NCBI GenBank assembly: GCA_020632235.1
Contig: JACKFY010000001.1
Span: 29,602-93,601 of the forward strand
Direction: 5' to 3'
DNA length: 64,000 nucleotides
Origin: Pseudomonadales bacterium
GTDB taxonomy: Bacteria; Patescibacteriota; Microgenomatia; UBA1400; PJMF01
Below the pieces are notes generated by a model. That model was not told the DNA's origin. It saw only the letters and a program-made list of their open reading frames with translations, and made no database searches. The translations under genes and the position numbers were made by a program. Below are positions 5,466 to 48,142 of the stretch, piece by piece; positions within the stretch are counted from its first letter, which is position 1, and the number at the start of each line of letters is the position of its first letter.

Positions 5466-6068
5466 ATGTTTACACTTCCCACACTTCCCTATGATTTTTC
5501 AGCACTTGAGCCAAGCATCGATGCCCGCACCATGGAGATCCACTACACCAAGCATCACCAGGGATATACTGATAAGCTGAACGGTGCTATCGAGGGGTCA
5601 GAGCTCGCAGATGCATCCATAGAAGAAGTTCTCTGTGTTGTTTCTCAGCACTCAGTAGCTGTACGTAACAACGCAGGCGGGTACTACAATCACACACTGT
5701 TTTGGGGGTCGATGAAGCCAGGAGAGGCGACACAGCCCACAGGAGAGCTCCTGGAAGCTCTCAGCGCCACGTTTGGCTCGGTTGACGGATTCAAGCAAGA
5801 GTTTTCAAACGCTGCCGCTACTCAGTTTGGCTCTGGATGGGCGTGGTTGGTGATGAGTGATGGACAGCTACAAGTAGTGGCCACGCCAAACCAAGACAAC
5901 CCACTCATGGACGTGGCAGATATTCGCGGCATCCCCCTTCTTGGACTTGATGTGTGGGAGCATGCCTACTACCTGCAGTATCAAAACAAACGGCCTGAGT
6001 ACATAGAAAACTGGTGGAGTGTGGTCAACTGGGATGTTGTAGCCGATAGACTTGCTGCTGCCTCTTGA
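5466..6068 (+). CDS. sodA: Fe/Mn superoxide dismutase
   Basis: [28 protein letters not shown] ... [19 protein letters not shown] are canonical Fe/Mn-SOD motifs. Confidence 0.9.
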
Positions 6069-6093
6069 AGGATAGCTATTTTTCTAAGTTTTT

Positions 6094-6681
6094 ATGAAAC
6101 AAGTTATTTTTGATGTTGAGACAAAGCGCACCTTTGATGAAGTGGGTGGAGTCTTCCCCGAAAAACTAGGTATTTCCTACATTGGCGTGTGTGTCAGGGA
6201 GCATCATAACACCGATGGCGAGGTGTTTGGTTTTTTTGAAAAAGATATCCCCGATTTCCTCTCTCTGCTAGAGAGTGCTGACGTAGTGGTGGGGTTTAAC
6301 AGCGATCATTTTGATTTACCTACGTTACTTGCCTACAACAGCGATCTTAACCTTCGTGAGATGCCCAGTCTGGACCTGATGGCGCGAATTAAAGACAGCG
6401 CTGGTCATAGAATAGGGCTAGATGCAGTAGCAAAGGAAACCCTTGGTGTTGGCAAAACAGGTGATGGTCTTGATGCTATCAAGTACTACCAAACAAAAAA
6501 CTGGGACGCGCTAGCCAAGTACTGCTTGCAAGATGTGGCAGTAACACGTGACATCTATGACCATGGGGTGGGGAAGGGTCATGTGCTGTTTAAAAACAAG
6601 TGGAACCGGCTGATTACCTGCCCGGTTGACTTTAGTTTTACTCCCGTCAAGAAAGTGGGGACGCAGCGTAGCTTGTTTTGA
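6094..6681 (+). CDS. DEDDy-type 3'-5' exonuclease (RNase H-like fold)
   Basis: Exo I FDVET, Exo II GFNSDHFDLP and Exo III YCLQDV (Y-x3-D) motifs. Confidence 0.6.
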   Translation: MKQVIFDVETKRTFDEVGGVFPEKLGISYIGVCVREHHNTDGEVFGFFEKDIPDFLSLLESADVVVGFNSDHFDLPTLLAYNSDLNLREMPSLDLMARIKDSAGHRIGLDAVAKETLGVGKTGDGLDAIKYYQTKNWDALAKYCLQDVAVTRDIYDHGVGKGHVLFKNKWNRLITCPVDFSFTPVKKVGTQRSLF

Positions 6682-6690
6682 CCCTCAAAC

Positions 6691-6954
6691 CTACATCATC
6701 TTGTACATCCACCACAAGACCAAGACCATAAAGAGCACCAAGAATAACATGATGAGCATGCTGGCGTTTGGGTTATCGCGGTCGAACTGCTGCTGTTCTT
6801 TATCTAGGTATTTTTTGTTGAGCGAGCTGTTGCTTTTTTTAGCAGTACTGCGTTTTTTACTTGCGGAGGCTGTTTTTTTAGCACTCGCTGACTTTGTTGT
6901 TTTGCGAGTTGTTTTTTTTACTGTCTTTTTTTTGGTTGCAGCTTTCTTTGGCAT
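6691..6954 (-). CDS. small Lys-rich protein with a C-terminal transmembrane helix
   Basis: MPKKAATKKKTVKK... low-complexity basic N-terminus plus a hydrophobic C-terminus. The overlapping + strand ORF looks spurious. Confidence 0.35.
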   Translation of the reverse strand: MPKKAATKKKTVKKTTRKTTKSASAKKTASASKKRSTAKKSNSSLNKKYLDKEQQQFDRDNPNASMLIMLFLVLFMVLVLWWMYKMM

Positions 6955-7091
6955 AGGGCAGATACATGATAAGTAGTACTGACTTCATCATAGCATACTG
7001 TCTTTACCTGCTACAACAGCCAGTTTTCCTCTGCTTTTTATTTCATCAATAGTATGGCTATAATGGAGAGGTTTTTATACAAAACTGCCCT

Positions 7092-8786
7092 ATGAGTTTA
7101 ACTGATACACAACTGCAAAAAGTGTTGCAAGATTCCGGTCATTTGAGTGATGCTAGTTTAAAACAAGTGCGCTCACTTTCTCAGCAGCACTCTATTTCTT
7201 TTCGAAAAGCTCTGATTCAGGGTAGTGTGATTACCGATGAAGAGCTAGGCAAGATGGAGGCAAAGCTAATGAAGGTGCCGTTTGTGGTGTTGACCCAACA
7301 AGAGATCGACCCTGATGTACTCAACCTTATACCCGTTGATAGTGCCAAAAAACACAAGACGATTGTGTTTGACCGAGACAAAGAGGGCTTAAAGGTCGCT
7401 ATTGCCGACACCAAAGATGTGCAGCTGCTTAAACTACTCGCCAAGAAAACAAAAGAGAAAGTTAAGGGCTACTACGCGACAGAGCAAGATATTGAAAACA
7501 CCATCGTGCTGTACAGACAAGATATTCAGAAAAAGTTTGCCGAGCTTGTCAAGGAGGGGCTGGGAGCAGTATTTGTGAGTAACAAGATGGACCCGCCAAT
7601 AGAGAAAATTGTTGATTTACTTATTCAGTCTTCGTACGAGCAGAAGGCGTCTGATGTACACATAGAGCCAAAAGAAGAGATGACGGTGGTGCGGTTTCGC
7701 ATTGATGGCTTGTTGTATGACGCGCTGCGTGTGCCCGCGCAGCTGCACGATCGCATTATCACCAGAATCAAGGTGTTGGCAGGGCTTCGCACCGATGAGC
7801 ACATGAGTGCGCAGGACGGCAAGATTCGCACCTCGGTCAACGGTGAAGACCTCGACCTTCGTGTTTCCATCTTGCCGGTAGCTGATGGTGAGAAAGTCGT
7901 CTTTCGCCTTCTTTCTTCCAAGGCCCGCTCGTACTCGGTGCTTGAACTCGGCTTGAGCGAGCGCGATCTAAAGGTTTTACAGGCAGCATACGCCAAGCCC
8001 AACGGCATGGTGCTCTCCACTGGCCCGACGGGTTCGGGCAAGACGACCAGTATTTACTCTATCCTCAAAGAGATCACCACAAAGGAAAAAAATATCACCA
8101 CGGTGGAAGACCCCATCGAGTACTACATGGAGGGTGCCAACCAAGTGCAGGTGAACACCAAGGCCAACTTGACGTTTGCCAACGGCTTGCGATCCATCCT
8201 TCGTCAAGACCCTGACTATATTTTTGTGGGTGAAATTCGTGACAACGAGACCGCCGGCATTGCGGTCAACGCGGCATTGACTGGTCACTTGGTGGTCTCG
8301 ACTCTCCACACCAATGATGCGGCTTCGGCATTTCACCGCCTGATAGACATGGATGTAGAGCCATTTTTGGTTGCTTCAACAGTCAACGTGATTGTAGCTC
8401 AGCGTTTGGTGCGCAAAATTTGCAATGCATGCCGCACTTCTTCAACAGTTACCGAAAAAGAGTTGCTTAAAAACCTTTCTACCGACATGATCCAAAAACA
8501 TTATGTGCCCGTTGGTGATAAAAAAGAAGTACGGGTATATGAGGGAAAGGGGTGTGAGCGGTGTCACTTTTCTGGCTACGAAGGTCGTATCGGCCTCTTT
8601 GAAGTACTGGAAGTTACCAAGCGCGTTAAAGACCTGGTTATCGCGCAAGCTGTTTCAGATGAAATAATGAAAGTAGCCATAGAAGAAGGTATGACCAGCA
8701 TGCTGGACGATGGCCTAGATAAAATCACCAAAGGTTTGACCACCATAGAAGAAGTCTTGCGTGTAACCAAGATAGAGGCAGAGTAG
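7092..8786 (+). CDS. pilB: type IV pilus assembly ATPase PilB (GspE family)
   Basis: N-terminal GSPII domain, Walker A GPTGSGKTT and a tetracysteine zinc motif CNAC...CERC. Confidence 0.9.
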   Translation: MSLTDTQLQKVLQDSGHLSDASLKQVRSLSQQHSISFRKALIQGSVITDEELGKMEAKLMKVPFVVLTQQEIDPDVLNLIPVDSAKKHKTIVFDRDKEGLKVAIADTKDVQLLKLLAKKTKEKVKGYYATEQDIENTIVLYRQDIQKKFAELVKEGLGAVFVSNKMDPPIEKIVDLLIQSSYEQKASDVHIEPKEEMTVVRFRIDGLLYDALRVPAQLHDRIITRIKVLAGLRTDEHMSAQDGKIRTSVNGEDLDLRVSILPVADGEKVVFRLLSSKARSYSVLELGLSERDLKVLQAAYAKPNGMVLSTGPTGSGKTTSIYSILKEITTKEKNITTVEDPIEYYMEGANQVQVNTKANLTFANGLRSILRQDPDYIFVGEIRDNETAGIAVNAALTGHLVVSTLHTNDAASAFHRLIDMDVEPFLVASTVNVIVAQRLVRKICNACRTSSTVTEKELLKNLSTDMIQKHYVPVGDKKEVRVYEGKGCERCHFSGYEGRIGLFEVLEVTKRVKDLVIAQAVSDEIMKVAIEEGMTSMLDDGLDKITKGLTTIEEVLRVTKIEAE

Positions 8787-8788
8787 GT

Positions 8789-9847
8789 ATGGCAAAAAAG
8801 TACTCGTCAGTGCGACTGGGTGGGGAAGACAAGATAAACTTGATAAGTGGTATTGCGACGATGCTCTCGGCTGGTATTCCTATTTTAGAAACAGTCAACT
8901 CGCTACTGGACGAGGCAAAGGGTAACACCAAGATTATTCTTGAGGCGATGCGCGATGATTTGGCGGCAGGGCAGTTTATGCACGAGACGCTGGGTAAGTT
9001 TCCTAAAGTATTTGACAAGGTCACGATCAACTTGGTGCGTGCAGCCGAAGAGGCAGGTAACCTAGAGCAAACCCTAGCTGATGTGCAGGACAGCATCAGA
9101 AAGCAAATGGAGTTTAACGATAAAATCAAGTCTGCCATGATGTACCCTGTGTTTGTGATGGTGGTGTTTGTAGGGGTGCTCTTGATGATTCTGGTGGTCG
9201 TTGTGCCAAAGATTAGCCAGGTATTTTCACGTATGAACATGGAGTTACCACTGCCGACGCGCATCATGATGCAGAGCTCAAACGCGTTGGTGGGACACCC
9301 GTTTATCGTGACGGGGAGTGTGGTGGTGTTTTTTGTGGTACTTGCGTTGATTTTTAAGTATCAGCGCCACGTACTCACCCGAGTGCTGTTTGCCCTACCT
9401 ATTGTGCGGGGACTGGTTAAAAATATTGACTTGACGCGTTTTACGCGCAGTTTGTACTTGCTTCTTACCTCTGGTTTGCCCATTGTGTTTGCGCTTGAGC
9501 TCGCCAGTGAAGTGGTGGTGCGTGACGATGTGCAGAAGATGCTTCAAACTGCACAAGAAATGGTGGTTTCAGGCAAGAGTTTGAGCGAAGGGCTCAAGAC
9601 AGACAATCACATTATGCCAGGGTCACTGGTCAAGCTGATAGAAGTGGGTGAGAAAAGCGGTACGCTCGATGTATCGCTCAGAACCATTTCAGAATCACTT
9701 GACTATAAAGTCTCAAAAGACTTGGCCTCGGCAACTGCATTGCTTGAGCCTATTATGTTGGTGGGGGTGGGGGTGGCGGTGGGAGGGATGATGCTGGCGA
9801 TCATTGCGCCTATCTATGGTCTCATTGCCAATGTTGGCGTACGTTAG
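8789..9847 (+). CDS. pilC: type IV pilus platform protein PilC (GspF family)
   Basis: Polytopic GspF-like protein directly downstream of pilB, with a 2-bp gap. Confidence 0.85.
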   Translation: MAKKYSSVRLGGEDKINLISGIATMLSAGIPILETVNSLLDEAKGNTKIILEAMRDDLAAGQFMHETLGKFPKVFDKVTINLVRAAEEAGNLEQTLADVQDSIRKQMEFNDKIKSAMMYPVFVMVVFVGVLLMILVVVVPKISQVFSRMNMELPLPTRIMMQSSNALVGHPFIVTGSVVVFFVVLALIFKYQRHVLTRVLFALPIVRGLVKNIDLTRFTRSLYLLLTSGLPIVFALELASEVVVRDDVQKMLQTAQEMVVSGKSLSEGLKTDNHIMPGSLVKLIEVGEKSGTLDVSLRTISESLDYKVSKDLASATALLEPIMLVGVGVAVGGMMLAIIAPIYGLIANVGVR

Positions 9848-9905
9848 TCAACCAGTCATCTCGACTAAGGTGGAGAGAAATCTGTGTTTGGGAATCCCCT
9901 CTTAC

Positions 9906-10331
9906 TTAAGAGGCGTCAGGGGTGTTTTTCAACAAGTTGTTCACGATCTCTACTAGCTGGTCTGGCGTGATGTCAGTTTTTGCATAGACTGCTTTAGCAC
10001 CTAGTCGCTTTGCCTGTTGCAACACAGGATCGTTTACTAGGTTGGTCAGCAAAATGATTGGCCCTTTTTTTTCAATCAGTTTTTTTTCAAACAACATAGT
10101 GAGAATACCGATGCCATCAATTTGTGGCATCATGACGTCAAGGAGGATGGCATCGTGCGAGCCTTCCTCAATAGCAGCCAGCCCAGCTTTACCGTCGCTG
10201 TGTGTCTCGACGGTAAAACCCGCCGACTTTAAAACCTCTTCGTAGAGTTCTCGGATAAAGAGGTCGTCATCAATGAGTAAAAGTGAGCTCGCCATATAGG
10301 TCAGTGTACGTCTGATACTCTTTTTTTTCAA
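9906..10331 (-). CDS. stand-alone response regulator receiver (CheY-like)
   Basis: LLIDDD...DAILLDVMMPQIDG...K are the REC-domain acidic pocket and Lys. The true start may be the internal Met (MASSLLL). Confidence 0.8.
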   Translation of the reverse strand: MKKKSIRRTLTYMASSLLLIDDDLFIRELYEEVLKSAGFTVETHSDGKAGLAAIEEGSHDAILLDVMMPQIDGIGILTMLFEKKLIEKKGPIILLTNLVNDPVLQQAKRLGAKAVYAKTDITPDQLVEIVNNLLKNTPDAS

Positions 10332-10335
10332 TCAG

Positions 10336-11466
10336 TTATTTTTGACCTCCCAATTGGTAAAGTGCACAGGTAAAACTACCACCCGCACCATACGAAAGCA
10401 TGAGAATCAGCTCTCCCGGTTGCATGTTTTCAAGCCGTCTACCCATAGACATGTGTATAGTAGCGGCAGGGACGTTTCCTTCGGTAATAGACCACTCAAT
10501 TGCTTCAGCCGGAATACTGAGGCGTTGTTTTCCTTCCAGGTATAAAAAGGGTTTCTTTGGACTGTACTGATACGTTTCAGAAAGATTACCCGCTACAATA
10601 TCAAATATTCCTCTACTGGGATGATGCATGATGACTGCTGTTATTTCTTGGCAGAGTGTTCCTACACTCTTGTTATTTTCTTGAGCATGCTCTAGTAGCA
10701 CTGCATACGCTAACGTTACGATGTTGGGAGGAAAGTATCTTAACGCACCAAGTGCACTCATTACTACACTGATATCTTTTTCATCTGGAGGTGAGTTGTG
10801 CGGGGCTACACTATCTGGTGTGTGTGCCTCTTCCCATTCATCCCATGAATGCTGAAATCGAAGGCAATTTACACCTTTTTCTACAGCCTTGCTTCTTCCC
10901 TCTAGAAGGTGTAAACCTGGATGGTAAGTATTATCATCTGCAGTAGAGTAAGTACCAAGGAGAATAGAAGCCCCGGTAGAAAAGACCTGCGGTGATTCCG
11001 CATCTTTCGGCAAACCAGTAGGGTAGCCTCCTTCCATAGCCACCAATGCGTATTCGATTGTGTCTTTTTTGCTAAGTTTTCCATTTTCAAAAAATGCCCC
11101 CGAGTGCAGATCATAGAGGAGTGAACCAGATGAATCACACGCTTTTGAGTAGACAATGACTGGAATGGTGTCCTCGCACCTCAGATTTCGTCTCACTCGT
11201 TCACGCACATCGGGTGTCAACGGCGCGGTGGTAGCTACCAGAATTACGTCAATATTTGCTGGCGTAACTGCATGTTCTTCAAACGTTTTCTTGGCTAGTT
11301 CAGCGACTACAACATCTTGAATGCGTGCCAGTACTTCGGCACCAAGATTTTGAGTCACTAGGTAGGTTTCTTCAAACCCACTCGTTTCAGCTATAGATTT
11401 GACCGTTTCTAACCCAAGCATTTCCCTAGCGCGCTGCACTATTGCTTCAGGCCCTTTACTGTGCAC
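10336..11466 (-). CDS. KAS III (FabH)-like thiolase-fold condensing enzyme; N-terminus in another frame (frameshift at A6 11480-11485)
   Basis: NIDVILVATTAP...VYSKACDSSGSLLYDL...APHNSPP...LSYGAGGSFTCAL align to the FabH active-site Cys, His and C-terminal regions. An upstream small ORF carries an ITIGSVF (IGTGSY-like) motif; a single base in the homopolymer would fuse it to this ORF. Confidence 0.7.
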   Translation of the reverse strand: MHSKGPEAIVQRAREMLGLETVKSIAETSGFEETYLVTQNLGAEVLARIQDVVVAELAKKTFEEHAVTPANIDVILVATTAPLTPDVRERVRRNLRCEDTIPVIVYSKACDSSGSLLYDLHSGAFFENGKLSKKDTIEYALVAMEGGYPTGLPKDAESPQVFSTGASILLGTYSTADDNTYHPGLHLLEGRSKAVEKGVNCLRFQHSWDEWEEAHTPDSVAPHNSPPDEKDISVVMSALGALRYFPPNIVTLAYAVLLEHAQENNKSVGTLCQEITAVIMHHPSRGIFDIVAGNLSETYQYSPKKPFLYLEGKQRLSIPAEAIEWSITEGNVPAATIHMSMGRRLENMQPGELILMLSYGAGGSFTCALYQLGGQK

Positions 11467-11746
11467 CCGTAAAAAACAGAACCGATGGTTATACCGACTG
11501 CGGCATTATGGTGTACTTCCATATTTGAAACAGACATTTTTCTACAATTTTCAGAAAAAGCTTCTAGAGCAATCACATCTGCGGAGAGGTCAGGAATTTC
11601 CTGGTTATTTTCTAGACCGTAAGCCTTAAAGAGTGTGGTCAGAGGTTTACCTTGTTCTGCAGATTCTTTTGTCATATTTGACGAATAGATGGATAGATCA
11701 GTATAGTGGATTTAAGTTATATTTTGTAGTATTTGTGAATACATAT

Positions 11747-11764
11747 GGGTCTAGACAACTTAAG
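11747..11764. repeat. left terminal inverted repeat of the IS element
   Basis: gggtctagacaacttaag. Confidence 0.8.
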
Positions 11765-11779
11765 CATCACTTAAGTGAT

Positions 11780-12465
11780 AAAATAGTTGTTAAGACCAAT
11801 GAAAAAACAAGTACATACGTCGTTCAAGAGTTTCAGAGGCTAAATTCAGAGATTTTGAGGTATTTCTGCGCTGATCAAACTGCAGCGCAAGCTGCAGTTC
11901 TTTCAGGTGTGAGTCGCAACTCAATTAACAGCTTGTATCATAAAATCAGAGTTCGCATTGTGAGTTTGTCTGTAGCAAACTCTCTGAGCTGGAGAGTTTG
12001 AAGTTGATGAGAGCTATTTTGGAGCAAAAAAAAGTAAGAGGCAAAAAGAGGAAGGGGGTGCAGCAGGAAAAACACCAGTGTTTGGTGTACTCAAGCGTGA
12101 TGGAAAAGTATACGTTAACATTGTTAAAAAACTGCACTAGAGAGCAATTAATGCCTATTATCCAGGGAAAAATACTTGAAGGATCCACTATCTACTCAGA
12201 TGGGTGGCAGGCGTATGACGGACTTATCCTCAATGGCTATGATCACTATCGTGTATTTCACTCGCATGATGAGTTTGTACGTGGCAAAGCACATGTCAAT
12301 GGTATAGAGAGCTTCTGGAGCTTTACAAAGAAGACTTGCAAAGTTTAATGGCTTGAAAAGTGATACATTTCATCTACACTTAAAAGAAAGTGAGTTTCGA
12401 TGGAATATGCGTGGAGAAAATATGTATCATTACTTACTACAGGAATTTAGAGAGAACAGCCACTT
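11780..12465 (+). pseudogene. IS1595-family DDE transposase, frameshifted into at least three pieces
   Basis: The pieces are GAAGKTPVFGVLKRDGKVYVNIVK, then TREQLMPII...STIYSDGWQAYDGL...HSHDEFVRGKAHVNGIESFWS, then FHLHLKESEFRWNMR (family C-terminal signature). They lie in different frames. Confidence 0.75.
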
Positions 12466-12467
12466 TA

Positions 12468-12482
12468 AAGTTGTCTAGACCC
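12468..12482. repeat. right terminal inverted repeat of the IS element
   Basis: aagttgtctagaccc is the reverse complement of the left end. Confidence 0.8.
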
Positions 12483-12558
12483 TACATATTTATTACTTAT
12501 TAAAGATTTTACAAAGTATAAATATAATTATCCCATAATTAAGTTAAATAAGATAATT

Positions 12559-12894
12559 ATGATAAGAATAGAGAAACAGAGAGACGCACACCATCCCGGT
12601 GTTAGTCCTTTATTGAGTGAACCAACTGCATTTCCTTTTATAGATGCATTTTCGCAACTAAGAGCTCCTGTTGTAGATCCTCTGAGAGTTATAGATAGAA
12701 AAGATAAACTAGCCGTTTACAGAGAAATTTATCGTTTGTGCTCAATCTTATACGGAGTTGATATTTCTGAGCCACTTAATGCAAGAGATATTGAAAAAAT
12801 AATGGAAACACATAAGACATTAGCAAAACAACTGGACAAGAACATACAGCATATTATAACTATTGTTTTGATATCCCAATTCCACCTTTGCTAG
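12559..12894 (+). CDS. hypothetical protein (AT-rich island)
   Basis: 111-aa ORF in a roughly 37 percent GC segment just right of the IS. Confidence 0.4.
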   Translation: MIRIEKQRDAHHPGVSPLLSEPTAFPFIDAFSQLRAPVVDPLRVIDRKDKLAVYREIYRLCSILYGVDISEPLNARDIEKIMETHKTLAKQLDKNIQHIITIVLISQFHLC

Positions 12895-12946
12895 AAGAGA
12901 CTTATAAAGATTACACATTTAATGGAAGTATGTTGAGGAGTTTTAA

Positions 12947-13488
12947 GTGCGGAGCACATGTTACGAAATATTACTCTTGCAGATTAATATATATATTGGT
13001 GAAGAAACGATGGGAGAGCTTGGAAGTGGTAGTGACCAGTTTCCTCTGACATTAGAGTCATTAAAAGAAGTAACTGCAGGTATGATCACAGGTTTTGATC
13101 AAGATACCTTGGTAGTTACAGTCACTGATGAGCAGGATATTCCTATTGGTATGATCAGGTTGATAAGAGGAAAGGTGACTTTTCAGTATTTACTGCATTT
13201 GGAAATACAGAAACTAACCTATCTAACTTCAGCAGTTTTCAACCACCTTTAGACTCAACTTTAGATCGGTTGGTGGTAGATGAATTTGGTCAATTTACTA
13301 CAAGTAAGGGTTTGAATGTAGGAAGATTTGCTGTCGATTCTCAAATTAGAAGAGATCGCATGATAGCACCATTACTTCTATATTTAGCAGGAAAATTAGT
13401 CGAAAAGTATAATGAAGAGTGTGTAGAAGATGGAAGAAGTCCTATAGTATTTCTCACCTGTGATACTCATGATAGAGCATCATTATGA
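12947..13488 (+). pseudogene. possible LuxI/FeeM-like GNAT-fold acyltransferase, split by a frameshift near 13180-13250
   Basis: FDQDTLVVTVTDEQDIPIGMIRLIRG (like E-D-YD...G-RLLPT) and LNVGRFAVDS (like WELSRFAV) lie in two overlapping frames. The second piece uses a TTG/GTG start. Weak, motif-level only. Confidence 0.3.
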
Positions 13489-13670
13489 CAGCTACAAAAT
13501 ATTTAGGCGCTCAATTAGTTATTGATCCTCAACATCTTGTTTCAGTACATATGGAAGGAGCGCATGAGCATCATTATCGAAATCATAGTGGTGATGTTTC
13601 AATTTTAGTGGCACATGCTGATCACTTTATAAGTGGTGGTAAAGAACAAAGTGAAAAAAATAATGCGTAG
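13485..13670 (+). CDS. small His-rich protein ending ...HFISGG-KEQSEKNNA (Ubl/sulfur-carrier-like or RiPP precursor candidate)
   Basis: 61 aa. Its start overlaps the upstream stop (ATGA) and it lies 21 bp upstream of the E1-like gene. GDVSILVAHADHFISGG resembles the last beta-strand plus GG of ThiS/MoaD. Confidence 0.45.
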   Translation: MTATKYLGAQLVIDPQHLVSVHMEGAHEHHYRNHSGDVSILVAHADHFISGGKEQSEKNNA

Positions 13671-13691
13671 AAGTGTTAGGAACAATGCAGC

Positions 13692-15053
13692 ATGATTAAT
13701 CGAGAAGATACCGACTTCGCCGGTAATGTGGAAGGAGTTGGTCATAAAAAAAAAGAGATAGCTCCGTATATTTACTCATATAAAGACTTTAGCCAGAGTT
13801 TTTTACCCGAGGACGCTCCTCAGTTGCCAGATGAGAGGCCGTATGAAATTCAAAAGAAGGAACTTCTCCAACTCCTCGATTTATATAAACACACATTACA
13901 TATTTTACCTGCAGAAGCACAGACAGCTGATGTAATTAGTTTAGTATTACATAGAGCTAACGATTTACTTGAGACTGGTATGCTCAGTCAGGAAGAACTA
14001 GCAAGAATTCAATTAATAATTGAGCTGTATTCTGAAGTATTTGATAATTATTTACTCTATCGAAGGATGATTTTGGAGCGCGAAGAAGCAATTAAAAATG
14101 ATGAGGGCGTAATGATTTATCATCCTAATACTAATTTATTCTATCGTTCCGTATCTAAAGAATTATTCTTATTACTAAGAATGAGTAGAGGTAGTACACT
14201 AGAAAGTCCTAACACGAAACGTAAAAGACAGCAAATAAGGTACCGTTTTATCGGAGCGAGTGTGGCAGGCGCAACCATTTTAAGAGCTGTTAAAGACGGC
14301 GCAATGGATGTAGTGATTGCTGATGCAGATACAATATCTGGTTCAAATCAAGAGCGACTAGCTGGTTTAGCAGCACACTTATATCAAATCGGTGAATATA
14401 AAGTAGATGCCTTGCTTGCGGACATGTATGCTATTAATCCATTTGGGAACTATAGAACTGAGCGTCGTTTGGTAATGCCTGATAATTTAGTCACAGATAA
14501 CTCAAAACATATTCCTATTTCAGAATATGTTGAAGAAGATACATTACTCATAGATGTTGCTGACTCATATAAAGCCGAGTTGCGAATAGCTTTATTCCAA
14601 GCAGGTATACTAATCCCTATTATTTCACTTGCTGACACACATCCTACACCTTTTGGTTTATACGAAGTAGTTGGTGAAGATAATCCCTTTGGACAGCGTG
14701 ACACATATGAAGAATGGAAATCATGGGTTGTGAGTGCGGAAAGTTTAAGCGAAGTTCAATTGGCTGCATACAAAGCTTTAACTACTGTAAAAATATTAGA
14801 GGACAGAGTGCCTGCTCCAACTTTAGTGAGTTTTATACATAATGTTTTTGGTTTGCAATCATTTTTACCTCAAGAACCAGCTGATCCTGGTGTATCTGCA
14901 AGTATTTTTTCTAAGTTATTACGGCAAATTATCGAAGGTATAGATGTAAAGGGTCGACCGCTTACGCTTACAGATTTGACAAATTTAGAAAAAGATACTC
15001 AATATGATAGGTCTGTGTTATTAAACTTTATCAAACTTTGTTTAAGCGAATAG
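13692..15053 (+). CDS. E1-like (ThiF/MoeB/MccB family) adenylyltransferase with a novel 190-aa N-terminal domain
   Basis: RFIGASVAGATILRAVKDGAMDVVIADADTISGSNQERL is the Rossmann GxGxxG plus D-x-D...SN-x-RQ motif. ...AINP...LLIDVADSYKAELRIALFQAGILIPIIS is the E1 core. There is no CxxC motif and no Cys in the N-domain. Confidence 0.65.
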   Translation: MINREDTDFAGNVEGVGHKKKEIAPYIYSYKDFSQSFLPEDAPQLPDERPYEIQKKELLQLLDLYKHTLHILPAEAQTADVISLVLHRANDLLETGMLSQEELARIQLIIELYSEVFDNYLLYRRMILEREEAIKNDEGVMIYHPNTNLFYRSVSKELFLLLRMSRGSTLESPNTKRKRQQIRYRFIGASVAGATILRAVKDGAMDVVIADADTISGSNQERLAGLAAHLYQIGEYKVDALLADMYAINPFGNYRTERRLVMPDNLVTDNSKHIPISEYVEEDTLLIDVADSYKAELRIALFQAGILIPIISLADTHPTPFGLYEVVGEDNPFGQRDTYEEWKSWVVSAESLSEVQLAAYKALTTVKILEDRVPAPTLVSFIHNVFGLQSFLPQEPADPGVSASIFSKLLRQIIEGIDVKGRPLTLTDLTNLEKDTQYDRSVLLNFIKLCLSE

Positions 15054-15094
15054 ATTTCATTGCTTGTTTTATGTAAGTATTCTAGAATGAAGCA

Positions 15095-15406
15095 ATGCTC
15101 TTTATTTTTATTTTACTTACTGTAGCTGCTAATTTGCTTATTTCTCTGATAGTTCTTAAAAAGAATCCTCGATCACATACTAATAGACTTATTGCAGCTC
15201 TCTCGATATTTGTTGCTCTTTGGAGTACAGCACAGTACATTTCTTTACTACCTCATGATGAACCAGAGCGATTGTTTTGGGTGCGAAGTATTATGGCCCT
15301 TACCGCTCCTGTATCAGTAATATTATATGGGATATCTCGATCTTTTCCAGATAGTAGTATTACACTAGAATTGAAAAAAAAAACTTGGTTTTCTTTTTAT
15401 GGATAG
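15095..15406 (+). CDS. N-terminal membrane segment of the sensor histidine kinase (separated from the rest by a frameshift at the A10 tract 15374-15383)
   Basis: Three TM helices. Both frames are open across the A10 run. One more or two fewer A would fuse it to the 15385 ORF. Confidence 0.6.
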   Translation: MLFIFILLTVAANLLISLIVLKKNPRSHTNRLIAALSIFVALWSTAQYISLLPHDEPERLFWVRSIMALTAPVSVILYGISRSFPDSSITLELKKKTWFSFYG

Positions 15407-17334
15407 CTGGTCTCATTATTATAGCTTTTACGTCATTAGCATTTTCTGAACTTAGCAACAACCCTGATGGCACTTTTAGTCTTTCACCAGGGCCTGCAAT
15501 AGTGCTATATGCCTTAAACATTTTTATTTTTATGTTTCTAGCTTTCAAAAACTTATATAATAAGTATCGACAAGCAAAAGGTGTTTTAAAAGAACAAATT
15601 AAGATTGTATCTTCTGGAATTATTACATCTTTTACTCTACTGACACTGACAAATTTTGTAGCTGTTGTCTTATTTAAGTCAATTAAATTAACTTCTTTAG
15701 GTCCTCCATCAACTTTGATCATGGTTGCTTCAATGACATATGCAATTGCTCGACATAAATTATTTGATGTTCGAGCAGCGATTGTACGATCAATATCCTT
15801 TACCGTTCTGCTTTCTTTATTTGCATTGTTATATAGTTTTATTTTCTTTTTTATTATTAACCAATTTTTAGATTATTTACCTAGTTGGATTAAAACCTTA
15901 ATATTTGCATTATTATTGGTGCCTATTATGTACTCATTTGATAGCATTAAGCGTTTCTTACAAAGACGGACAGAAAAAATATTTTATAAAAATTTTTATG
16001 ATATTGATCAAACTGCAAAGTTATTAGCTGAAGAAATTAATGGCACACTTGAACTAAAAAAATTGATAAATGATGTTATACGACAGCTAGAAGGAATCTT
16101 GCAAGTTGAAGGAATACGAGTACTTATAGGTAAAAACAAGCAGGCAAAGATATATGAGAATAGTACGTTATTATCTAACCATGATCAGCTTGTTCAATTT
16201 TTATACCTAGTGAAAAAAATTAGAAGAAGGAAGCTAAGTTATTTACTTCTAAGTGATACTCCTGAAGGAAAATTGAAGGAAACTTTTCGTGCATTAAGTA
16301 CAGAATTAGTATTTCTATTTGAGGCGACTAGCGGGATAATAGGAGGGGGTTTTTTTCCTCCAAAGAACAATGGTGATCCCTATACTAGCCAAGATATTCA
16401 ACTGCTAAGTATTGTAGTACCCCAACTATCTGTTGCACTTCAGAACTCTCAGTCATACGAGGAAATCAGTAAATTCAATACCACCCTCAAAGAAGAAGTA
16501 AAGAAAGCAACCACCAAGCTAAAATCAATGAATCAAAATCTTCGCAACCTCGACCGCCTCAAAGATGAATTTCTCTCTATCGCTTCCCACGAGCTGCGCA
16601 CGCCCATGACCGCTATCAAGTCCTACATTTACATGACACTTTCAGGCAAAGGTGGCAAAGTGACCAAAAAACAAAAGTACTATCTAGAGCGCTCGTACAT
16701 GGCCACCGAGCGACTCATCAAGCTTGTCAACAATCTACTGAACATCTCGCGCATTGAGTCGGGCAGGATCTCGCTGGAGCTGGAAAAAATCAATCTTTAT
16801 CGTCTCACTGACGAGGTGTTTGACGAGGTGCGCGCCCGCGCTGAGGAGCTGGGGCTTTCCATCAGCCAAACCAAGCTGGAAGAGCAGAAAAAGCTAGAAG
16901 TTATCGCCGACACAGATAAAGTCAAAGAGGTTTTGATCAACTACATCGGCAACTCACTCAAGTTTACCCCCAAGGGGGGTAGTATCACGGTTTCATACGA
17001 AGTGGCTGACGACATGATCTGGACCAGGGTGACCGACACCGGGGCTGGCGTGTCTCAAGAAGATCTGGGTAACTTGTTTCAAAAATTTGGTCTGATGGAA
17101 GGGTCATATCAGGTAAACCAAAATGTGTCGCAGGGCACGGGCTTGGGTCTCTACATCTGCAAGTCGGTTATTGAGTTGCATGGGGGCGAGGTAGATGCTA
17201 CCTCTCCAGGGGTAGGAAAGGGAACGGTGTTCTCATTTTCACTCCCTCTCTACACGGCTAAAAAGTATTTGGGTCTCAAGAAAAAGTTTGGTGGAAAAGA
17301 TGGTGTTGGCATCGTGCATACATCTGCGTCATAA
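15385..17334 (+). CDS. sensor histidine kinase (multi-TM sensor, HisKA, HATPase_c)
   Basis: At least six further TM helices. H-box EFLSIASHELRTPMTAIKSY. N, G1 and G2 boxes (NSLKFTPKGG...DTGAGV...GTGLGL). Confidence 0.85.
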   Translation: MVFFLWIAGLIIIAFTSLAFSELSNNPDGTFSLSPGPAIVLYALNIFIFMFLAFKNLYNKYRQAKGVLKEQIKIVSSGIITSFTLLTLTNFVAVVLFKSIKLTSLGPPSTLIMVASMTYAIARHKLFDVRAAIVRSISFTVLLSLFALLYSFIFFFIINQFLDYLPSWIKTLIFALLLVPIMYSFDSIKRFLQRRTEKIFYKNFYDIDQTAKLLAEEINGTLELKKLINDVIRQLEGILQVEGIRVLIGKNKQAKIYENSTLLSNHDQLVQFLYLVKKIRRRKLSYLLLSDTPEGKLKETFRALSTELVFLFEATSGIIGGGFFPPKNNGDPYTSQDIQLLSIVVPQLSVALQNSQSYEEISKFNTTLKEEVKKATTKLKSMNQNLRNLDRLKDEFLSIASHELRTPMTAIKSYIYMTLSGKGGKVTKKQKYYLERSYMATERLIKLVNNLLNISRIESGRISLELEKINLYRLTDEVFDEVRARAEELGLSISQTKLEEQKKLEVIADTDKVKEVLINYIGNSLKFTPKGGSITVSYEVADDMIWTRVTDTGAGVSQEDLGNLFQKFGLMEGSYQVNQNVSQGTGLGLYICKSVIELHGGEVDATSPGVGKGTVFSFSLPLYTAKKYLGLKKKFGGKDGVGIVHTSAS

Positions 17335-26878: not shown

Positions 26879-28330
26879 ATGTCAAGTTGGGATTTTGCGC
26901 ATAGTTGGGTATACTACACATCCAGATGTCACGATTTGCAGCCAAACACACCTCTAATGATGATCTTGCTGGAACCAGGGAGTACGAACATGGTTATTCG
27001 TATAGCACGAGTGGGTACGCCCACATCTCAAAAGCCAGGCCACTCCGCCCGCGTGGTGTCTGAAATTTCGCATATAAAGCAAGAACCGGCATGGATGGAA
27101 GAAAAGCGTCTGGCGGCCTACGATCGCTTTACTGGCATGCAGCTTCCTGGTTGGGGAGCCGATCTTTCTGATATCGACTTTGATCGCATTCATTACTATC
27201 TTAAACCCACTGATGAACAAGCTAACTCTTGGGACGACGTACCAACCGAGGTCAAGGAAACCTTTGAAAAACTAGGCATTCCTGAGGCCGAGCGGAGTGT
27301 CCTGGCTGGAGTGAAAGCCCAGTATGATAGTGAGGTAGTGTATGGCTCCTTGCAAAAAACCTAGCAGACCAAGGGGTCGTCTTTCTCTCGATGGACGAAG
27401 GCTTGCGACAATACCCGAGCTGGTCAAGAGTACTTTGGCACGCTCATTCCTGCTGGTGACAACATGTTTGCTGCCCTCAATACTGCCGTCTGGTCTGGCG
27501 GTCGTTTGTGTATGTACCTCCCAATACGCAAGTAACCCAGCCGCTCCAGGCTTACTTTCGTATCAATGCTGAAACGCAGGGCAGTTTGAGCGTACTCTGA
27601 TTATTGTAGATGAAGGAGCACGTGCATTATATTGAGGGATGTACCGCGCCAAATTTTAGTTCTGGCTCGCTACATTCTGCCGTGGTTGAAATTTTTGTCA
27701 AAAAAGGGGCACAATGTCAGTACACAACGGTCCAAAATTGGTACAAGAATGTGTGTACAACTTGGTCACTAAGCGGCCAGTGTTGATGAAGAGCGCAGAT
27801 GATCTGGACAGACTTTAACATGGGCTCCAAGGTAACGATGAAGTACCCTAGTTTTATCTTGAAAGGTAGAGGCGCCAGAGGCGAGACGCTCTCGATGGCG
27901 CTGGCAGGAGCAGGCCAGCACCAGGACACAGGGTCGAAGGCTATTCACCTCGCACCCCACACCTCTTCGAGTATTATCTCAAAATCAATTTCAAAAGATG
28001 GGGAAGAACCAGCTATCGAGGTCTTGTAAATGTGGGACCAACGCCCAAAATGCCCAAAACACGGTCATCTGCGATGCGCTGTTGCTTGATAGTACCTCGC
28101 GCTCTGACACCTATCCAGTAGATAAAATTTTTAACTCACAGGTGGCCATTCAGCACGAGGCAACAGTGTCAAATAGGTGATGACCAGCTGTTTTTATCTG
28201 ATGAGTCGTGAGGTCACCGAGAAACCGCCCGCAAGATGATCGTCAATGGCTTTTAGAAGACTTGGTGCGCAAGCTGCCGTTTGAGTATGCTATCGAGATG
28301 AATAGACTGATTGATCACGAGATGGAAGGA
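26879..28330 (+). pseudogene. sufB: sufB (Fe-S scaffold), heavily frameshifted
   Basis: IKQEPAWMEEKRLAAY..., [147 protein letters not shown] and IGDDQLFL are all SufB-like. They are scattered over three frames. Confidence 0.7.
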
Positions 28331-28366
28331 GTATAGGCTAGATACTTGAAGAAAAGGGAGCTTAAT

Positions 28367-28441
28367 CCCTCTTCTCAAAGAGGGGCACCCTTCACCTGAA
28401 GGGTGAACGGGCAGGCGTTTCTCTCCTCTTTCAAAGAGGAG
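28367..28441. repeat. cluster of hairpin palindromes (ccctcttctcaaagagggg; ttcacc-tgaag-ggtgaa; ctcctctttcaaagaggag)
   Basis: Members of the CCCCTCTT-nnn-AAGAGGGG intergenic palindrome family. Confidence 0.7.
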
Positions 28442-28504
28442 CAGGCTGAAAGCCAGAGGTGTTTTTAGAAAAAAATGTATGTATGAAAACAATACCATAT
28501 AGAA

Positions 28505-28815
28505 AAGATCTAAAGAAAAAGCAAGGAGGTTGTGCAACAACAGCACTCCTTCTGAAATCATTCTTTGGAACCACATAAAACAGAGAAAATTGCAGGTCTT
28601 GATTTCAATAGACAAAACCAGTTGATATTTACATAATTGATTTTTTAATACTGCATACAAACTAGGTATAGAAATTGATGGAAGTATCACAACCACACAG
28701 GACTATGATCTTAAAAGAGAACAACGACTGGCGAGCCTGGGTATTACTCTTTTTAGAACAACAGAAAAAGAAGTTGCTACCAATACGCAAGGAGTACTAC
28801 TGCAACTTACCAAAT
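28505..28815 (+). pseudogene. DUF559 (Vsr-like endonuclease domain) remnant with in-frame stops
   Basis: TPSEIILWNHIKQRKLQ ... KLGIEIDGSITTTQDYDLKREQRLASLGITLFRTTEKEV matches the DUF559 C-terminal pattern. Confidence 0.45.
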
Positions 28816-30651: not shown

Positions 30652-31020
30652 ATGAGCGACCTCTACCAAGAAATACTACTATCAGAGCTCAAACACCCGC
30701 AAAATCACGGCGAATTACCTCATTTTACCCACTCATCTTCTGGTGCTAACGCCTCTTGTGGGGACCAGCTTTCCGTTCAGCTGCTGATTACTGATGCAGG
30801 CGTCATTGAAAACATAGCTTGGAGGGGTGCAGGCTGTGCCATTAGCCAGGCTACCATGAGCTTGCTCTCAGAGCACATCAAGGGCGCGACCACCTCCCAG
30901 GTTCAAGCACTGACTGATGAAACGCTTTCAGAGTTGACCGGCATTACCCAGATTGCCATTACCCGAAAAAAATGCTTGATGCTGGGCTTAGTAACACTGC
31001 GAGAAGCTTTGAAAATATGA
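30652..31020 (+). CDS. sufU: SufU/IscU-like sulfur acceptor
   Basis: The three conserved Cys contexts: ASCGDQL, GAGCAIS, RKKC. Confidence 0.85.
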   Translation: MSDLYQEILLSELKHPQNHGELPHFTHSSSGANASCGDQLSVQLLITDAGVIENIAWRGAGCAISQATMSLLSEHIKGATTSQVQALTDETLSELTGITQIAITRKKCLMLGLVTLREALKI

Positions 31021-31577
31021 CTATCTGCATTGGCTCTACCAATCCTGTCAAGGTGGCTGCAGTTAAGAACGCAGCAGCGCATGTGTTCGGGAAGTCCGTT
31101 TCGATTCAATCACGCTCGGTCGGGAGTGGTGTTTCAGAGCAACCCCGCAGTAGTGATGAAACCAAGCAAGGGGCAGAAAACCGCGCGCGAAGTGCTTTGT
31201 CTCAGGTGAGTAGTGGCTCAGAAGGTCTGAAAGACGAAGTCAAGCTCGGCATTGGTCTGGAAGGGGGCGTTGCGCTTGATAGCGCTGGAGTGCTGTGGTC
31301 ATTTGTTTGGGTACATGTGGTAGATGGACAGGGTTCTGCAATTTCTGTGAAAGGCTCTCAGTTTCCAGTGCCAGAACCATTTGCAGCCAAGATCATCGCA
31401 GGGGGTGAGATGGGTCCCGTGACCGACGAGGTGCTGGGCACCACCAACAACAAGCACAAAGAAGGGTTGGTGGGTGTCTTGAGCGGAGGGGCAACAGATA
31501 GGCAGACAGAGTTCCAACACCTGGTTGTGTTAGCTCTGGGACTGTGGAAAGAGCGCAATCTTCCTCTTTTCGAGTAG
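31017..31577 (+). CDS. inosine/xanthosine triphosphatase (YjjX/DUF84 family)
   Basis: ICIGSTNPVKVAAV...SGVSEQP matches the YjjX N-terminus. Its start overlaps the sufU stop (ATGA). Confidence 0.65.
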   Translation: MTICIGSTNPVKVAAVKNAAAHVFGKSVSIQSRSVGSGVSEQPRSSDETKQGAENRARSALSQVSSGSEGLKDEVKLGIGLEGGVALDSAGVLWSFVWVHVVDGQGSAISVKGSQFPVPEPFAAKIIAGGEMGPVTDEVLGTTNNKHKEGLVGVLSGGATDRQTEFQHLVVLALGLWKERNLPLFE

Positions 31578-40499: not shown

Positions 40500-41312
40500 A
40501 TGAAGTTGACTATTTTTTTATTTGCCATTCCTATTTTGAGTAGTCTGAGTGGCCTACTGTTATACCGATTCATCGGAAAAAAGCAGCTGTTTAAGCTTGA
40601 CTCTATCCAGTTTTTGTATGCATTTGTGCTTGCCCCGTTATTATTTGTGTGGGCCAAAACATTTTTTTATACCCTTGTTTCAACTCAAAATCTCGGCATT
40701 GCGCTGAGTAGTAACGATGTATTTATTCTGGACACAGTATTTAGCACCTTTCTGCTTTTTATTTACGCATTTGTGGTCATGCACTCGCTGACCAAGACGT
40801 TTAACGTGCGGATGAAAGACGACCCGCTGTACAACATCTTCCACCACTCGGAGTACTTTCATTTGTGGTTGACGCATTTGGCGATGTTTGGCGGTGTGCT
40901 CTCGTGTATTTTTATTATCGGGGCTGTCAATGTATTTTTGCCGTTCCCCTCCGAGCTGGTGCACACTCCACCGCTTGCAATCTTGCCAGTGGGCATTGTC
41001 ACAGGGGTGTTGATTTTTGTTTCAGCTCTGCTGTCTGACCCAAAACAGGCTAAAAACTTTGGTAGAGTGCTCAAGGTGCTTTACGGCGTGTTATTTATGG
41101 CCCAGATGGTGTTCTATCTAGTATTTAGCCCCAGTTTTGATAATGAGCATTTGTTATTTTGGTGGAGTATGTTGGTGTTTGCCACGCTGGTGACTATTTC
41201 ATTTTTTTCGTATAGATCGGTCAAAACACAGTCATTTTTTGAACGAGTAGTGAGCAAATGCAAGCATCTAGAGTGGGAGTTTCGCCTGCAGCTGTTTGGT
41301 GATAAAAAATAG
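40500..41312 (+). CDS. polytopic membrane protein, hypothetical
   Basis: At least seven predicted TM helices. Confidence 0.5.
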   Translation: MKLTIFLFAIPILSSLSGLLLYRFIGKKQLFKLDSIQFLYAFVLAPLLFVWAKTFFYTLVSTQNLGIALSSNDVFILDTVFSTFLLFIYAFVVMHSLTKTFNVRMKDDPLYNIFHHSEYFHLWLTHLAMFGGVLSCIFIIGAVNVFLPFPSELVHTPPLAILPVGIVTGVLIFVSALLSDPKQAKNFGRVLKVLYGVLFMAQMVFYLVFSPSFDNEHLLFWWSMLVFATLVTISFFSYRSVKTQSFFERVVSKCKHLEWEFRLQLFGDKK

Positions 41313-41365
41313 CGTATACTCTACGGAAAAGAAAAAAAGTATGAACACAAAGAGAAAGTTTTGAC

Positions 41366-43030
41366 ATGTCAAGCATTCGCGTTATGCCCCTGGGTGGGAT
41401 GGGAAATGTAACCCAAAATATGTTTTTGTATCAGGTAGACCAACAGATCTTGATTGTTGATTGTGGTATTGGATTTCCTGACCACCACATGCCAGGCGCA
41501 GACCTGCTTATTCCCGATATTAGCTATCTTCATCAGCTCCTAGAACAAGGAAACACCATCGCTGGTATGGTGCTCTCGCATGGCCATGAAGACCACATCG
41601 GGGCACTGGGGTATATTTTGCCAGAACTACCAGAGTTTCCCATCTTTGCTGTGCCGTTTACCGCCGCCTTTGCCCAAAAACGACTCGAGGATAAAGGAGC
41701 ACGCGGGAGCGTGACGCCTGTTCACGATGAAACACATTTGCAGATCAGCCCAACGTTCTCGGTTGAGTTTGTGCAAGTGACCCACTCGGTGCCAGAGACA
41801 CGACACCTCATCATCCGTACACCTGCAGGTACCATCTATCATGGCAGTGACTTTAAGCTTGACCCGCACCCTGTGGACGGCAAGGTGAGTCAGCTCGATC
41901 GCATTGGTCAACTTGCCAGCGAAGGCATAGACCTTATGACCATCGATTGCTTGCGGGTAGAGAGTGCAGACTGGACGAAATCAGAATCAACTGTAGGTCC
42001 GTCTATCGAGACCACGATGCGCGAAACAAAGGGTAAGTACATTATTACCTTGATGAGCTCGCACATTCATCGCATTCAGCAGACCATTGATGCAGCCGAC
42101 AAGTGCGGACGCAAGATCACTTTTGTGGGGCGCTCTGTAGAACAAAACATGGAGATAGCTCTCTCACTAGGCGAGGCGCACATTCCTAAAGGCATGCAGA
42201 TAGACAAACGTGATATTCAAAATACCGCCGATGACAAGCTGTGCGTAGTCATTGCAGGCAGCCAGGGGCAAGAGGGCTCGTCACTGGTGCGAGCAGTTTT
42301 TGGTGAGCATCCGGTTATTCAGATTGCCGAGCACGACACAGTCGTGTTTTCAGCTAGTGCTATTCCTGGCAATGAACTGCCGTACTACGCTGCTATAGAT
42401 GAGCTGTGTAAAAATGGCGTACACGTGGTGTATCCGGACATACTCAAAACACTGCACCAATCTGGTCATGCAAGTACCCCAGAGCAACAGGAGTTACTCG
42501 GGTTGGTCAAGCCCACCTACGTGATGCCAATTGGCGGGGCTGATAGGCACCGCGTCAAGTTTTTGGAGTTTGTGGCAGAGCCTCTTGGGTACACCAAAGA
42601 CGCAGTGCTCCTGCCCAACTCTGGTGAGGTGCTCGAACTTTCTGCTAGTGGACCCAAGGTGGTCGAGAGTGTACACCTCAAGCCACGCATCGTGGATGGA
42701 CTCGGCATAGGAGACGTGGGGCCGGTGGTGCTCTCAGATCGCAAAGCGCTTTCTGAAGCTGGTATCATTGTAGTGGTTGTTCCTCGGGTAAAGGGGCAGT
42801 TTAGGCCAAAGGATATCAGGGTCATTTCCAAGGGATTTGTGTTCATGAAAGAGGCAGATGACGTGATCGAGTTTATCACCAGTACCACCGCAGAATTACT
42901 CACAACATTCAAGAAAAAAACTTCAGATGAAAAGCTGCGAAGGTCTATCGAGCACACACTATCCAGAAAGCTGTTTAAGATCATTCGCCGAGAGCCACTA
43001 GTGGTGATGGTGATTGCAGATACTGCTTGA
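41366..43030 (+). CDS. rnj: ribonuclease J (metallo-beta-lactamase/beta-CASP)
   Basis: LSHGHEDHIGAL (HxHxDH) and beta-CASP motifs. Typical 554-aa length. Confidence 0.88.
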   Translation: MSSIRVMPLGGMGNVTQNMFLYQVDQQILIVDCGIGFPDHHMPGADLLIPDISYLHQLLEQGNTIAGMVLSHGHEDHIGALGYILPELPEFPIFAVPFTAAFAQKRLEDKGARGSVTPVHDETHLQISPTFSVEFVQVTHSVPETRHLIIRTPAGTIYHGSDFKLDPHPVDGKVSQLDRIGQLASEGIDLMTIDCLRVESADWTKSESTVGPSIETTMRETKGKYIITLMSSHIHRIQQTIDAADKCGRKITFVGRSVEQNMEIALSLGEAHIPKGMQIDKRDIQNTADDKLCVVIAGSQGQEGSSLVRAVFGEHPVIQIAEHDTVVFSASAIPGNELPYYAAIDELCKNGVHVVYPDILKTLHQSGHASTPEQQELLGLVKPTYVMPIGGADRHRVKFLEFVAEPLGYTKDAVLLPNSGEVLELSASGPKVVESVHLKPRIVDGLGIGDVGPVVLSDRKALSEAGIIVVVVPRVKGQFRPKDIRVISKGFVFMKEADDVIEFITSTTAELLTTFKKKTSDEKLRRSIEHTLSRKLFKIIRREPLVVMVIADTA

Positions 43031-43081
43031 CAGCGCCCTCAAAGATGATATATCCTATAATTATTAGTTGAGATAGATGCT

Positions 43082-45265: not shown

Positions 45266-45268
45266 AGT

Positions 45269-45661
45269 ATGGTCGGAATTGATACATTTTTTGGTAGAAG
45301 ACATCAAAGTATACAGGACGTGAGAGCAAAGGAAGATCCTTATTATAAAAGCGATCGGTCTGAGTCAGAAAATGTTGTGCGAGGAAGTTTGAAGGAGAGT
45401 ATTGCAGAATCAACATCAGTTAGAGATATAATTAATCTTCTGCAACTTGCGGCGTCATCTCGCCCAGACATGAAGCTTGGAAGAAGAGATACGTCGATAC
45501 AATCGGTAATAACTTATCTAGAAGACTATGAGAAACAACCAACTGACAGAAAACTTGCTGGTATAACTAACGATTTGGGTCTTAGAGACAAAATAGAAGA
45601 GTTACTGCCCCCCCCATCAAAAGATAAAAGATCATGGTTGAGGCGCTTCTTTGTTGGCTGA
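45269..45661 (+). CDS. hypothetical protein (AT-rich; contains an in-frame C8 tract 45608-45615)
   Basis: 130-aa ORF. The poly-C tract encodes PPP. Confidence 0.35.
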   Translation: MVGIDTFFGRRHQSIQDVRAKEDPYYKSDRSESENVVRGSLKESIAESTSVRDIINLLQLAASSRPDMKLGRRDTSIQSVITYLEDYEKQPTDRKLAGITNDLGLRDKIEELLPPPSKDKRSWLRRFFVG

Positions 45662-46244
45662 AAAAATTAAGATGTTTGAGCAACTCCCTGCTCAAGCGAA
45701 AGAAAAACCTACCAAGAAGGAGCGTCGCAGGCGTGAACTAGAACAGATCAGGCGAAGAGTAGAGCTATTTGCCCCTTATGCAGAGCAGTTTTTCAAAGCT
45801 GTTCGCGCAAAAGATAGTGAGGCTCTGCTTGCGTTGGCCAGGAGTAAGGGATACACCACACAAAATGTATCCATTGGTTTTGAGCTACTTGGTTCCTCAA
45901 CAGAAAGAGTATTTATTACGAAAGACAATCCAGTCAGGATAGATAATAGGACCCTCTATCTGGGGGAAGGATACGATTTTCTAGATCTTGCGCATGATGT
46001 ATTGGTTATACTCATTGGAGGCAAGCAGTTGTTGGTAGGAGAATCAGCATATGTGAGCTATGAAACTGCAAGGATTGTGTGGGGCACATCTCGGTTTTCT
46101 CCAAGAGCGATACAGCGTTGGTTGTTAGGGCTATTCGATTCTAGTTACGACACAATAGCAGATACTCATGTACTAGACAGATGCTTTATAGAGCTACAAA
46201 GAGATCCGACGGAAGTGTTGGAGGGGATAGAGGCTACTTTCTAA
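45651..46244 (+). CDS. hypothetical protein
   Basis: 197-aa ORF with a basic N-terminus. Confidence 0.4.
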   Translation: MLAEKIKMFEQLPAQAKEKPTKKERRRRELEQIRRRVELFAPYAEQFFKAVRAKDSEALLALARSKGYTTQNVSIGFELLGSSTERVFITKDNPVRIDNRTLYLGEGYDFLDLAHDVLVILIGGKQLLVGESAYVSYETARIVWGTSRFSPRAIQRWLLGLFDSSYDTIADTHVLDRCFIELQRDPTEVLEGIEATF

Positions 46245-46716: not shown

Positions 46717-46786
46717 GCCCCAGAATATACCGCCAAACTATATCAAAAACAATCAGAAGAATGCATTGGAGTATCAAACTCTATCT

Positions 46787-47596: not shown

Positions 47597-47692
47597 GAAC
47601 TTGGTATACTAGTATGAGTGTGAATTGTACGGTTGTCTGTATAGATTCTGAATCAAGTCCAGAATGACAACCTACAATTATTGAGTCACTTT

Positions 47693-48135: not shown

Positions 48136-48142
48136 TTTTGCG

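Follow-up and report, generated by a model that had tools for sequence, protein, structure and literature searches.

Insertion sequences of the IS1595 family move by transposition catalysed by a DDE transposase, the enzyme recognising the terminal repeats of the element. Within this family ISApl4, of the IS1016 subgroup, is 712 bp long, encodes a protein of 217 aa and has 14-bp repeats (GGGGCTGTACTAGA) and 8-bp AT-rich direct repeats (PMC12561309). The transposases of the subgroup are recognised by the signature E-DESYFG(53)VYTD----Y(24)HINGIENFW...(14)...KECEFRFN (PMC12561309, citing Siguier 2009), and copies of the ISFtu3/ISFtu6 class in Francisella have been reported as pseudogenes (PMC1978527).

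The element analysed in this work lies in a 64-kb window, by which we mean the whole stretch of 64,000 nucleotides under study, a segment of a bacterial chromosome which carries pnp, pilB/pilC, the RNase J gene, ftsK, suf genes and a tmRNA gene. With ISApl4 and the other IS1016-subgroup elements of Pasteurellaceae and Moraxella (PMC12561309) it shares a compact size (712 bp in ISApl4, 735 bp here) and, the likeness being drawn from the published description, a single tnp ORF, of 217 aa in ISApl4 and 222 aa here. Both have perfect repeats starting with GGG (14 bp and 15 bp, respectively) and AT-rich direct repeats (7-9 bp in the subgroup), and both encode the same catalytic signature, DESYFG ... 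YxD----Y ... HxNGIExFW ... KExEFRxN, with spacings no more than one residue apart. After the GGG, however, the repeats differ (GGGGCTGTACTAGA in ISApl4, GGGTCTAGACAACTT here), and while the hosts of the ISApl4 group are proteobacteria, the host of the window element is a Patescibacteria MAG.

At NCBI the source MAG (locus tags H6774_) goes under 'Pseudomonadales bacterium', and nr has it as 'Candidatus Woesebacteria bacterium'. The RNase J of the window shows 100% identity to a protein encoded on a 271,383-bp contig of this MAG. The nearest relatives of RNase J and of other proteins of the MAG are found in Woesebacteria, Microgenomates and Patescibacteria, and the Pseudomonadales label is therefore a probable taxonomic mislabel. 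Elsewhere in the window the tmRNA gene (47693-48135) measures 443 nt against the 374 positions of the Rfam model (111 bits) and thus contains an insertion, and look-ups of the ORFs at 30972-31577 and 59182-60459 found nothing on record.

Position, ends and family of the element

Alignment to intact copies on two other contigs (L001 and L002) delimits the insertion sequence to positions 11747 to 12482 on the + strand; it is 736 bp long in the window and 735 bp when intact. The left terminal inverted repeat (IRL, GGGTCTAGACAACTT, 11747-11761, + strand) and the right one (IRR, AAGTTGTCTAGACCC, 12468-12482, - strand) are complementary at 15 of 15 positions, and these two were the only exact copies of the repeat when the whole 64-kb window was searched. 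The letters TACATAT abut the element on both sides (11740-11746 and 12483-12489, by direct reading), and the insertion duplicated these 7 bp of its target. Length, bounding repeats and flanking duplication are all as the original prediction had described them, and so is the position at the edge of an AT-rich island; the element forms the left edge of this strain-variable island. The transposase gene runs from 11799 to 12468 (+ strand), its stop codon overlapping the IRR. The C-terminal segment FHLHLKESEFRWN, which had been singled out as family-specific, is present, and pieces of the transposase are spread over all three forward frames.

The termini of the window element recur in both L001 and L002, and the flanks of L001 diverge from the window exactly outside the element ends. 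Independent confirmation of the insertion junctions comes from the right junction only, which is also present in L002; the left junction was not recovered from short-read data by look-ups of the FabH-like ORF, a 78-aa ORF and the NCBI protein P0241. Other copies were sought by an exact 24-nt end search in the window, the GTDB representative genomes and the JGI metagenomes. With the IRL as query this gave no match in the GTDB representative genomes or the JGI metagenomes, nor an empty site (which would read ...GTGAATACATATTTATTACTT...) in either collection, and within the window no second exact copy of the element was found. A MITE or other non-autonomous derivative was rejected, the element being full length (736 vs 735 bp) and no other copy having been found in the window or in these two collections.

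Joining the transposase fragments of the window by hand across frames produced a stitched protein which matches PF12762 (DDE_Tnp_IS1595) at 1.6e-29 (103.4 bits, curated cut-off 27) and NF033547 (IS1595 family transposase) at 3e-45 (154.7 bits, curated cut-off 75). Individual fragments also match PF12762 or NF033547 above the curated cut-offs, and the similarity of the internal pieces to IS1595-family transposases, on which the original assignment hung, was thereby recovered by profile search. The best match of the stitched protein, at 94% identity, is P0001 (222 aa; 96.8 bits against PF12762), encoded on L001, an 857-bp ENA metagenome contig where an element with the same termini sits between different flanks with an 8-bp duplication, TTCAGGAA. 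A look-up with the 453-aa gene that lies on the right-hand side of the insertion retrieved two Logan short-read contigs, L002 (run SRR12358675), which matches window positions 11747-16511, and L003 (run SRR12358676), which corresponds to 12453-15576. L002 carries the same insertion, the IRR being followed by TACATATTT..., with an uninterrupted transposase ORF of 222 aa.

The intact copy has EVDESYFG at residues 69-76, IYSDGWQAY at 131-139, HVNGIESFW at 165 and LKESEFRWN at 195. The resulting signature, EVDESYFG(54)IYSD----Y(25)HVNGIESFW...(15)LKESEFRWN, has spacings of 54, 25 and 15, none of which departs by more than one residue from the published 53, 24 and 14. Size (735 bp and 222 aa in L001 and L002, where the subgroup has about 700-750 bp and a single ORF of about 217-225 aa), ends (short inverted repeats starting with GGG, 15/15 GGGTCTAGACAACTT) and duplications (AT-rich and 7-9 bp in the subgroup; TACATAT, 7 bp, in the window and TTCAGGAA, 8 bp, in L001) agree with the profile matches and the signature, and the IS1595-family, IS1016-group assignment stands. 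It is a genuine IS1016-group insertion sequence, and the genome whose AT-rich intergenic site it occupies is Woesebacteria-like and belongs to the Patescibacteria. Between L002 and L001 only 2 of 735 positions differ, and copies this similar at two unrelated sites (that of the window and L002, and that of L001) suggest recent mobility; the breaks of the Logan contigs at the ends of the element are a further indirect sign of transposition. In the organism the element most likely encodes one uninterrupted 222-aa DDE transposase, expected to bind the element at its 15-bp GGGTCTAGACAACTT termini and to mobilise it in the way of other IS1016 elements.

Indels in the transposase gene, the island and the suf genes

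Relative to L002, the transposase gene of the window contains ten indels (at 11802, 11847, 11983, 11989, 12026, 12043, 12054, 12126, 12328 and 12449). Frameshifts in the transposase sequence of the window had been noted correctly, the count of at least two being too low. Beyond these indels the insertion sequence differs from L002 by a single indel-adjacent substitution, with zero isolated substitutions. The changes fall in mononucleotide runs (A5 to A6 twice, A4 to A5, G4 to G5), in (AG)n dinucleotides gaining or losing one unit (three times) and in 2-nt runs (CC to C, TT to T), and one is complex (AAAAAGAG to AAAAAAAAG). L003, from a second run, matches the L002 state at all shared sites, and L001, from another site and another sample, has the intact state at all ten.

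To the right, the AT-rich island (12483-16455) encodes a 378-aa orphan, a 453-aa protein with a weak ThiF/E1-like match and the N-terminus of a 7TM histidine kinase. Its right edge as a variable region is near 16456, and the island is strain-variable since L090, a contig from a short-read MAG, has another histidine kinase N-terminus on the left of that position. Across 4.7 kb the window and L002 differ by 18 indels (11 insertions and 7 deletions) and five substitutions, complex GAG-to-AAA changes being among the differences; those in the island outside the insertion sequence include GAG to AA(A), A to AA, GG to G, A9 to A10 and T4 to T5. Genes that are not part of the element are affected. The orphan gene (12559-13695, + strand), intact in L002 and L003, is interrupted in the window, where indels occur at 12826, 12945, 12966, 13170, 13476 and 13654, and the sensor histidine kinase gene (15095-17334, + strand), also intact in both contigs, has its 5' part split by +1 indels at 15374 (A9 to A10) and 15394 (T4 to T5). 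In the 453-aa gene mid-island (13692-15053) there are zero differences between the window and the short-read contigs, and any error process was patchy. Just two isolated substitutions relative to the short-read contigs were seen, at 13183 and 13542, each turning the first C of TTCCAGTA into T; the pair looks systematic and not random, and may stem from base-calling errors specific to this motif and related to methylation.

On its other side the island has as neighbours a response regulator (9906-10331) and a FabH-like protein (10336-11675, - strand) in which only ACP_syn_III_C was matched and for which no homologue but itself was found at E<=1e-20 among 5.8 billion proteins. The 78-aa ORF upstream of the FabH-like gene (11439-11675) ends in GITIGSVFYG, resembling the N-terminus of KAS III, and a single additional T in the T6 run at 11474-11479, making it T7, would bring the ORF into frame with that gene; the T6 is possibly another homopolymer error.

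Scanning the window for places without long ORFs located a second damaged stretch at 27.3-28.3 kb. Between 25199 and 28700 the coding sequences of sufC, sufB and a DUF559-SufD gene are split between reading frames. At least seven consecutive TIGR01980 pieces of sufB lie in alternating frames (profile positions 17-126, 150-181, 176-203, 216-261, 274-344, 330-400 and 429-448), and of sufC only a fragment is left. The same three genes are intact, sufC with 247 aa and sufB with 475 aa, in L092, contig 26 of the short-read MAG GCA_020429115.1. Relative to L092, the window has 33 indels from 27062 to 28700, most of them of a single base and in short runs or homopolymers, besides 128 substitutions; from 28.7 to 35.3 kb it differs by only 2 substitutions. 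Real loss of the conserved Fe-S cluster assembly genes sufB and sufC is implausible in a bacterium with a reduced genome, and their broken state therefore points to patches of poor consensus in the source assembly. The suf stretch is independent evidence of such patches, on top of real allelic divergence.

Agreement with short-read contigs elsewhere in the window is free of indels over about 36 kb. Positions 5939-10013 are 100% identical to L007 and positions 41078-51935 to L004 (NCBI GCA_020429115.1); against L005 (39766-49030) there are 13 SNPs and zero indels over 9.3 kb, against L006 (40692-45883) 7 SNPs and zero indels over 5.2 kb, and against L090 (16456-23469) 18 SNPs and zero indels over 7.0 kb. 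The indels are thus local and not a property of the whole window.

Origin of the frameshifts

We put at roughly 80% the probability that the transposase frameshifts are assembly or consensus errors and not biological, since the gene is intact where short-read assemblies cover this locus. The spectrum of differences is what uncorrected consensus errors look like, and from its localised, indel-only character we infer a technical origin. In the source metagenome assembly the data behind the frameshifted stretch, whether used to assemble or to correct it, may have been poorer; a long-read consensus without short-read polishing would fit, the region being repeated and strain-variable. In hybrid metagenome assemblies it is typical of such regions that long-read consensus spans them or that short-read polishing misses them. 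The insertion sequence is what recurs in the community; what differs between strains is the island (12483 to about 16455) and the suf stretch. Short-read contigs reach their limits at the bad stretches: L007 ends at 10013, L002 begins with the first base of the insertion sequence, L003 begins 30 nt inside the IRR, as a k=31 graph would be expected to do at a repeat, and in L090 divergence sets in on the left of 16456 and on the right of 23469. A multi-copy repeat in this genome that blocked polishing was considered and set aside, no second exact copy having been found; strain variability together with repetition of the element in the community is the more likely cause of the bad patch. There are counterpoints, in that the short-read contigs may derive from slightly different strains (core divergence reaches 0.14%), that the 453-aa gene is free of differences and that the 128 substitutions in the sufB stretch represent real allelic variation there.

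The original prediction had offered two biological readings of the broken gene, a decaying copy or expression through programmed frameshifting. A truly decayed copy in this strain, non-autonomous with intact ends and mobilisable in trans by an intact copy or a related IS1016-group element elsewhere in the same genome, is unlikely. Its ends and duplication are perfect, as such a copy would need, and a MAG of the same population (GCA_020429115.1) holds a second IS1016-group element, with transposase P0004 (77% aa identity) and nearly the same 15-nt termini; inactive IS1016-type copies are moreover common, all Francisella copies being pseudogenes (PMC1978527) and truncated tnp genes occurring in Moraxella (PMC12561309). 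Yet L002 has this insertion in intact form, almost all the differences are indels, in homopolymer or AG contexts, and the same type of damage runs through the neighbouring genes and sufB/sufC. When bacterial pseudogenes decay naturally, substitutions predominate and deletions outnumber insertions, and slippage in vivo has a strong preference for long runs; ten indels without an isolated substitution, with insertions in excess and some sites in runs of 2 nt, are unlike such decay. Programmed ribosomal frameshifting, or transcriptional slippage at A-runs, could draw on the several indels that fall in slippage-prone A5-A8 runs, but it is excluded in practice: ten indels would mean ten recoding events, of mixed sign and size (+1, -1, +2, -2) and partly at CC, TT and AG sites. 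The two overlapping ORFs with one conserved slippery site of IS1- and IS3-type elements are not found here, the nearly identical L001 and L002 have one continuous ORF, and the best 120 relatives, of thousands, are single ORFs of 201-229 aa, nearly all of 220-226 aa.

It is very unlikely that the consensus is instead a chimera of co-existing strain alleles, created by polishing with a mixed population and not by plain long-read error. The island and the suf stretch are indeed strain-variable, L090 and L092 diverging there (128 substitutions in sufB), and the Logan contigs break at the ends of the insertion sequence; inside the element, however, the zero isolated substitutions relative to L002 give no sign of a second allele, and a chimera would in any case be a variant of the artefact explanation and not a biological alternative to it. 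That the indels are real, this strain carrying a near-pure indel load at short runs in the insertion sequence, the island genes and sufB/sufC, appears highly improbable. If they were, they would point to an unusual indel-biased mutational process, or to tolerance by way of slippage, in a reduced-genome CPR bacterium, and the element would be a full-length dead copy mobilisable in trans.

Relatives and significance

The consensus-error reading leaves an element with many relatives. The stitched transposase has thousands of homologues, and the best 120 are mostly single proteins of 220-226 aa, many of them from Patescibacteria, Saccharibacteria, Peregrinibacteria and Treponema MAGs. Searches of the annotated plasmid collection by blastn and tblastn gave distant relatives only, the closest being a copy in Francisella tularensis annotated 'IS1595 family transposase' (NZ_CP010448.1). 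At the amino-acid level it is 63% identical, with 99% of the protein aligned, and at the nucleotide level 57% of the window element aligns to it with 73% identity. The Francisella element is far more distant than unnamed metagenomic relatives at 74-78% aa identity. These unnamed relatives (L008, L010-L016; P0002-P0013) span 69-78% aa identity in all, with single ORFs of 221-225 aa in elements of 731-745 bp, and come from MAGs of Patescibacteria, Saccharibacteria, Dojkabacteria and Treponema. They have in common with the window element the termini GGGTCTAGAC..., and by sequence they are different IS species from it; a quick automated end search gave no clean target duplications for most of their loci. 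One of them, at 2949-3681 of L008 (GCA_020429115.1 contig 32), is a second, different IS1016-group element with a transposase (P0004) of 221 aa and 77% identity, and its termini, GGGTCTAGACAACTTTA and GGGTCTAGAGAACTTTA, are nearly the same as those of the window element.

The frameshifts in the window stretches at about 11.4-15.4 kb and about 25-28.7 kb are probably assembly artefacts, and claims of pseudogenes, of a 'decaying IS' or of recoding drawn from either stretch are not trustworthy without read support. The real element is probably an intact, recently mobile and unnamed member of the IS1016 group. It adds one such unnamed element in Patescibacteria to a group whose close relatives are already abundant in MAGs.
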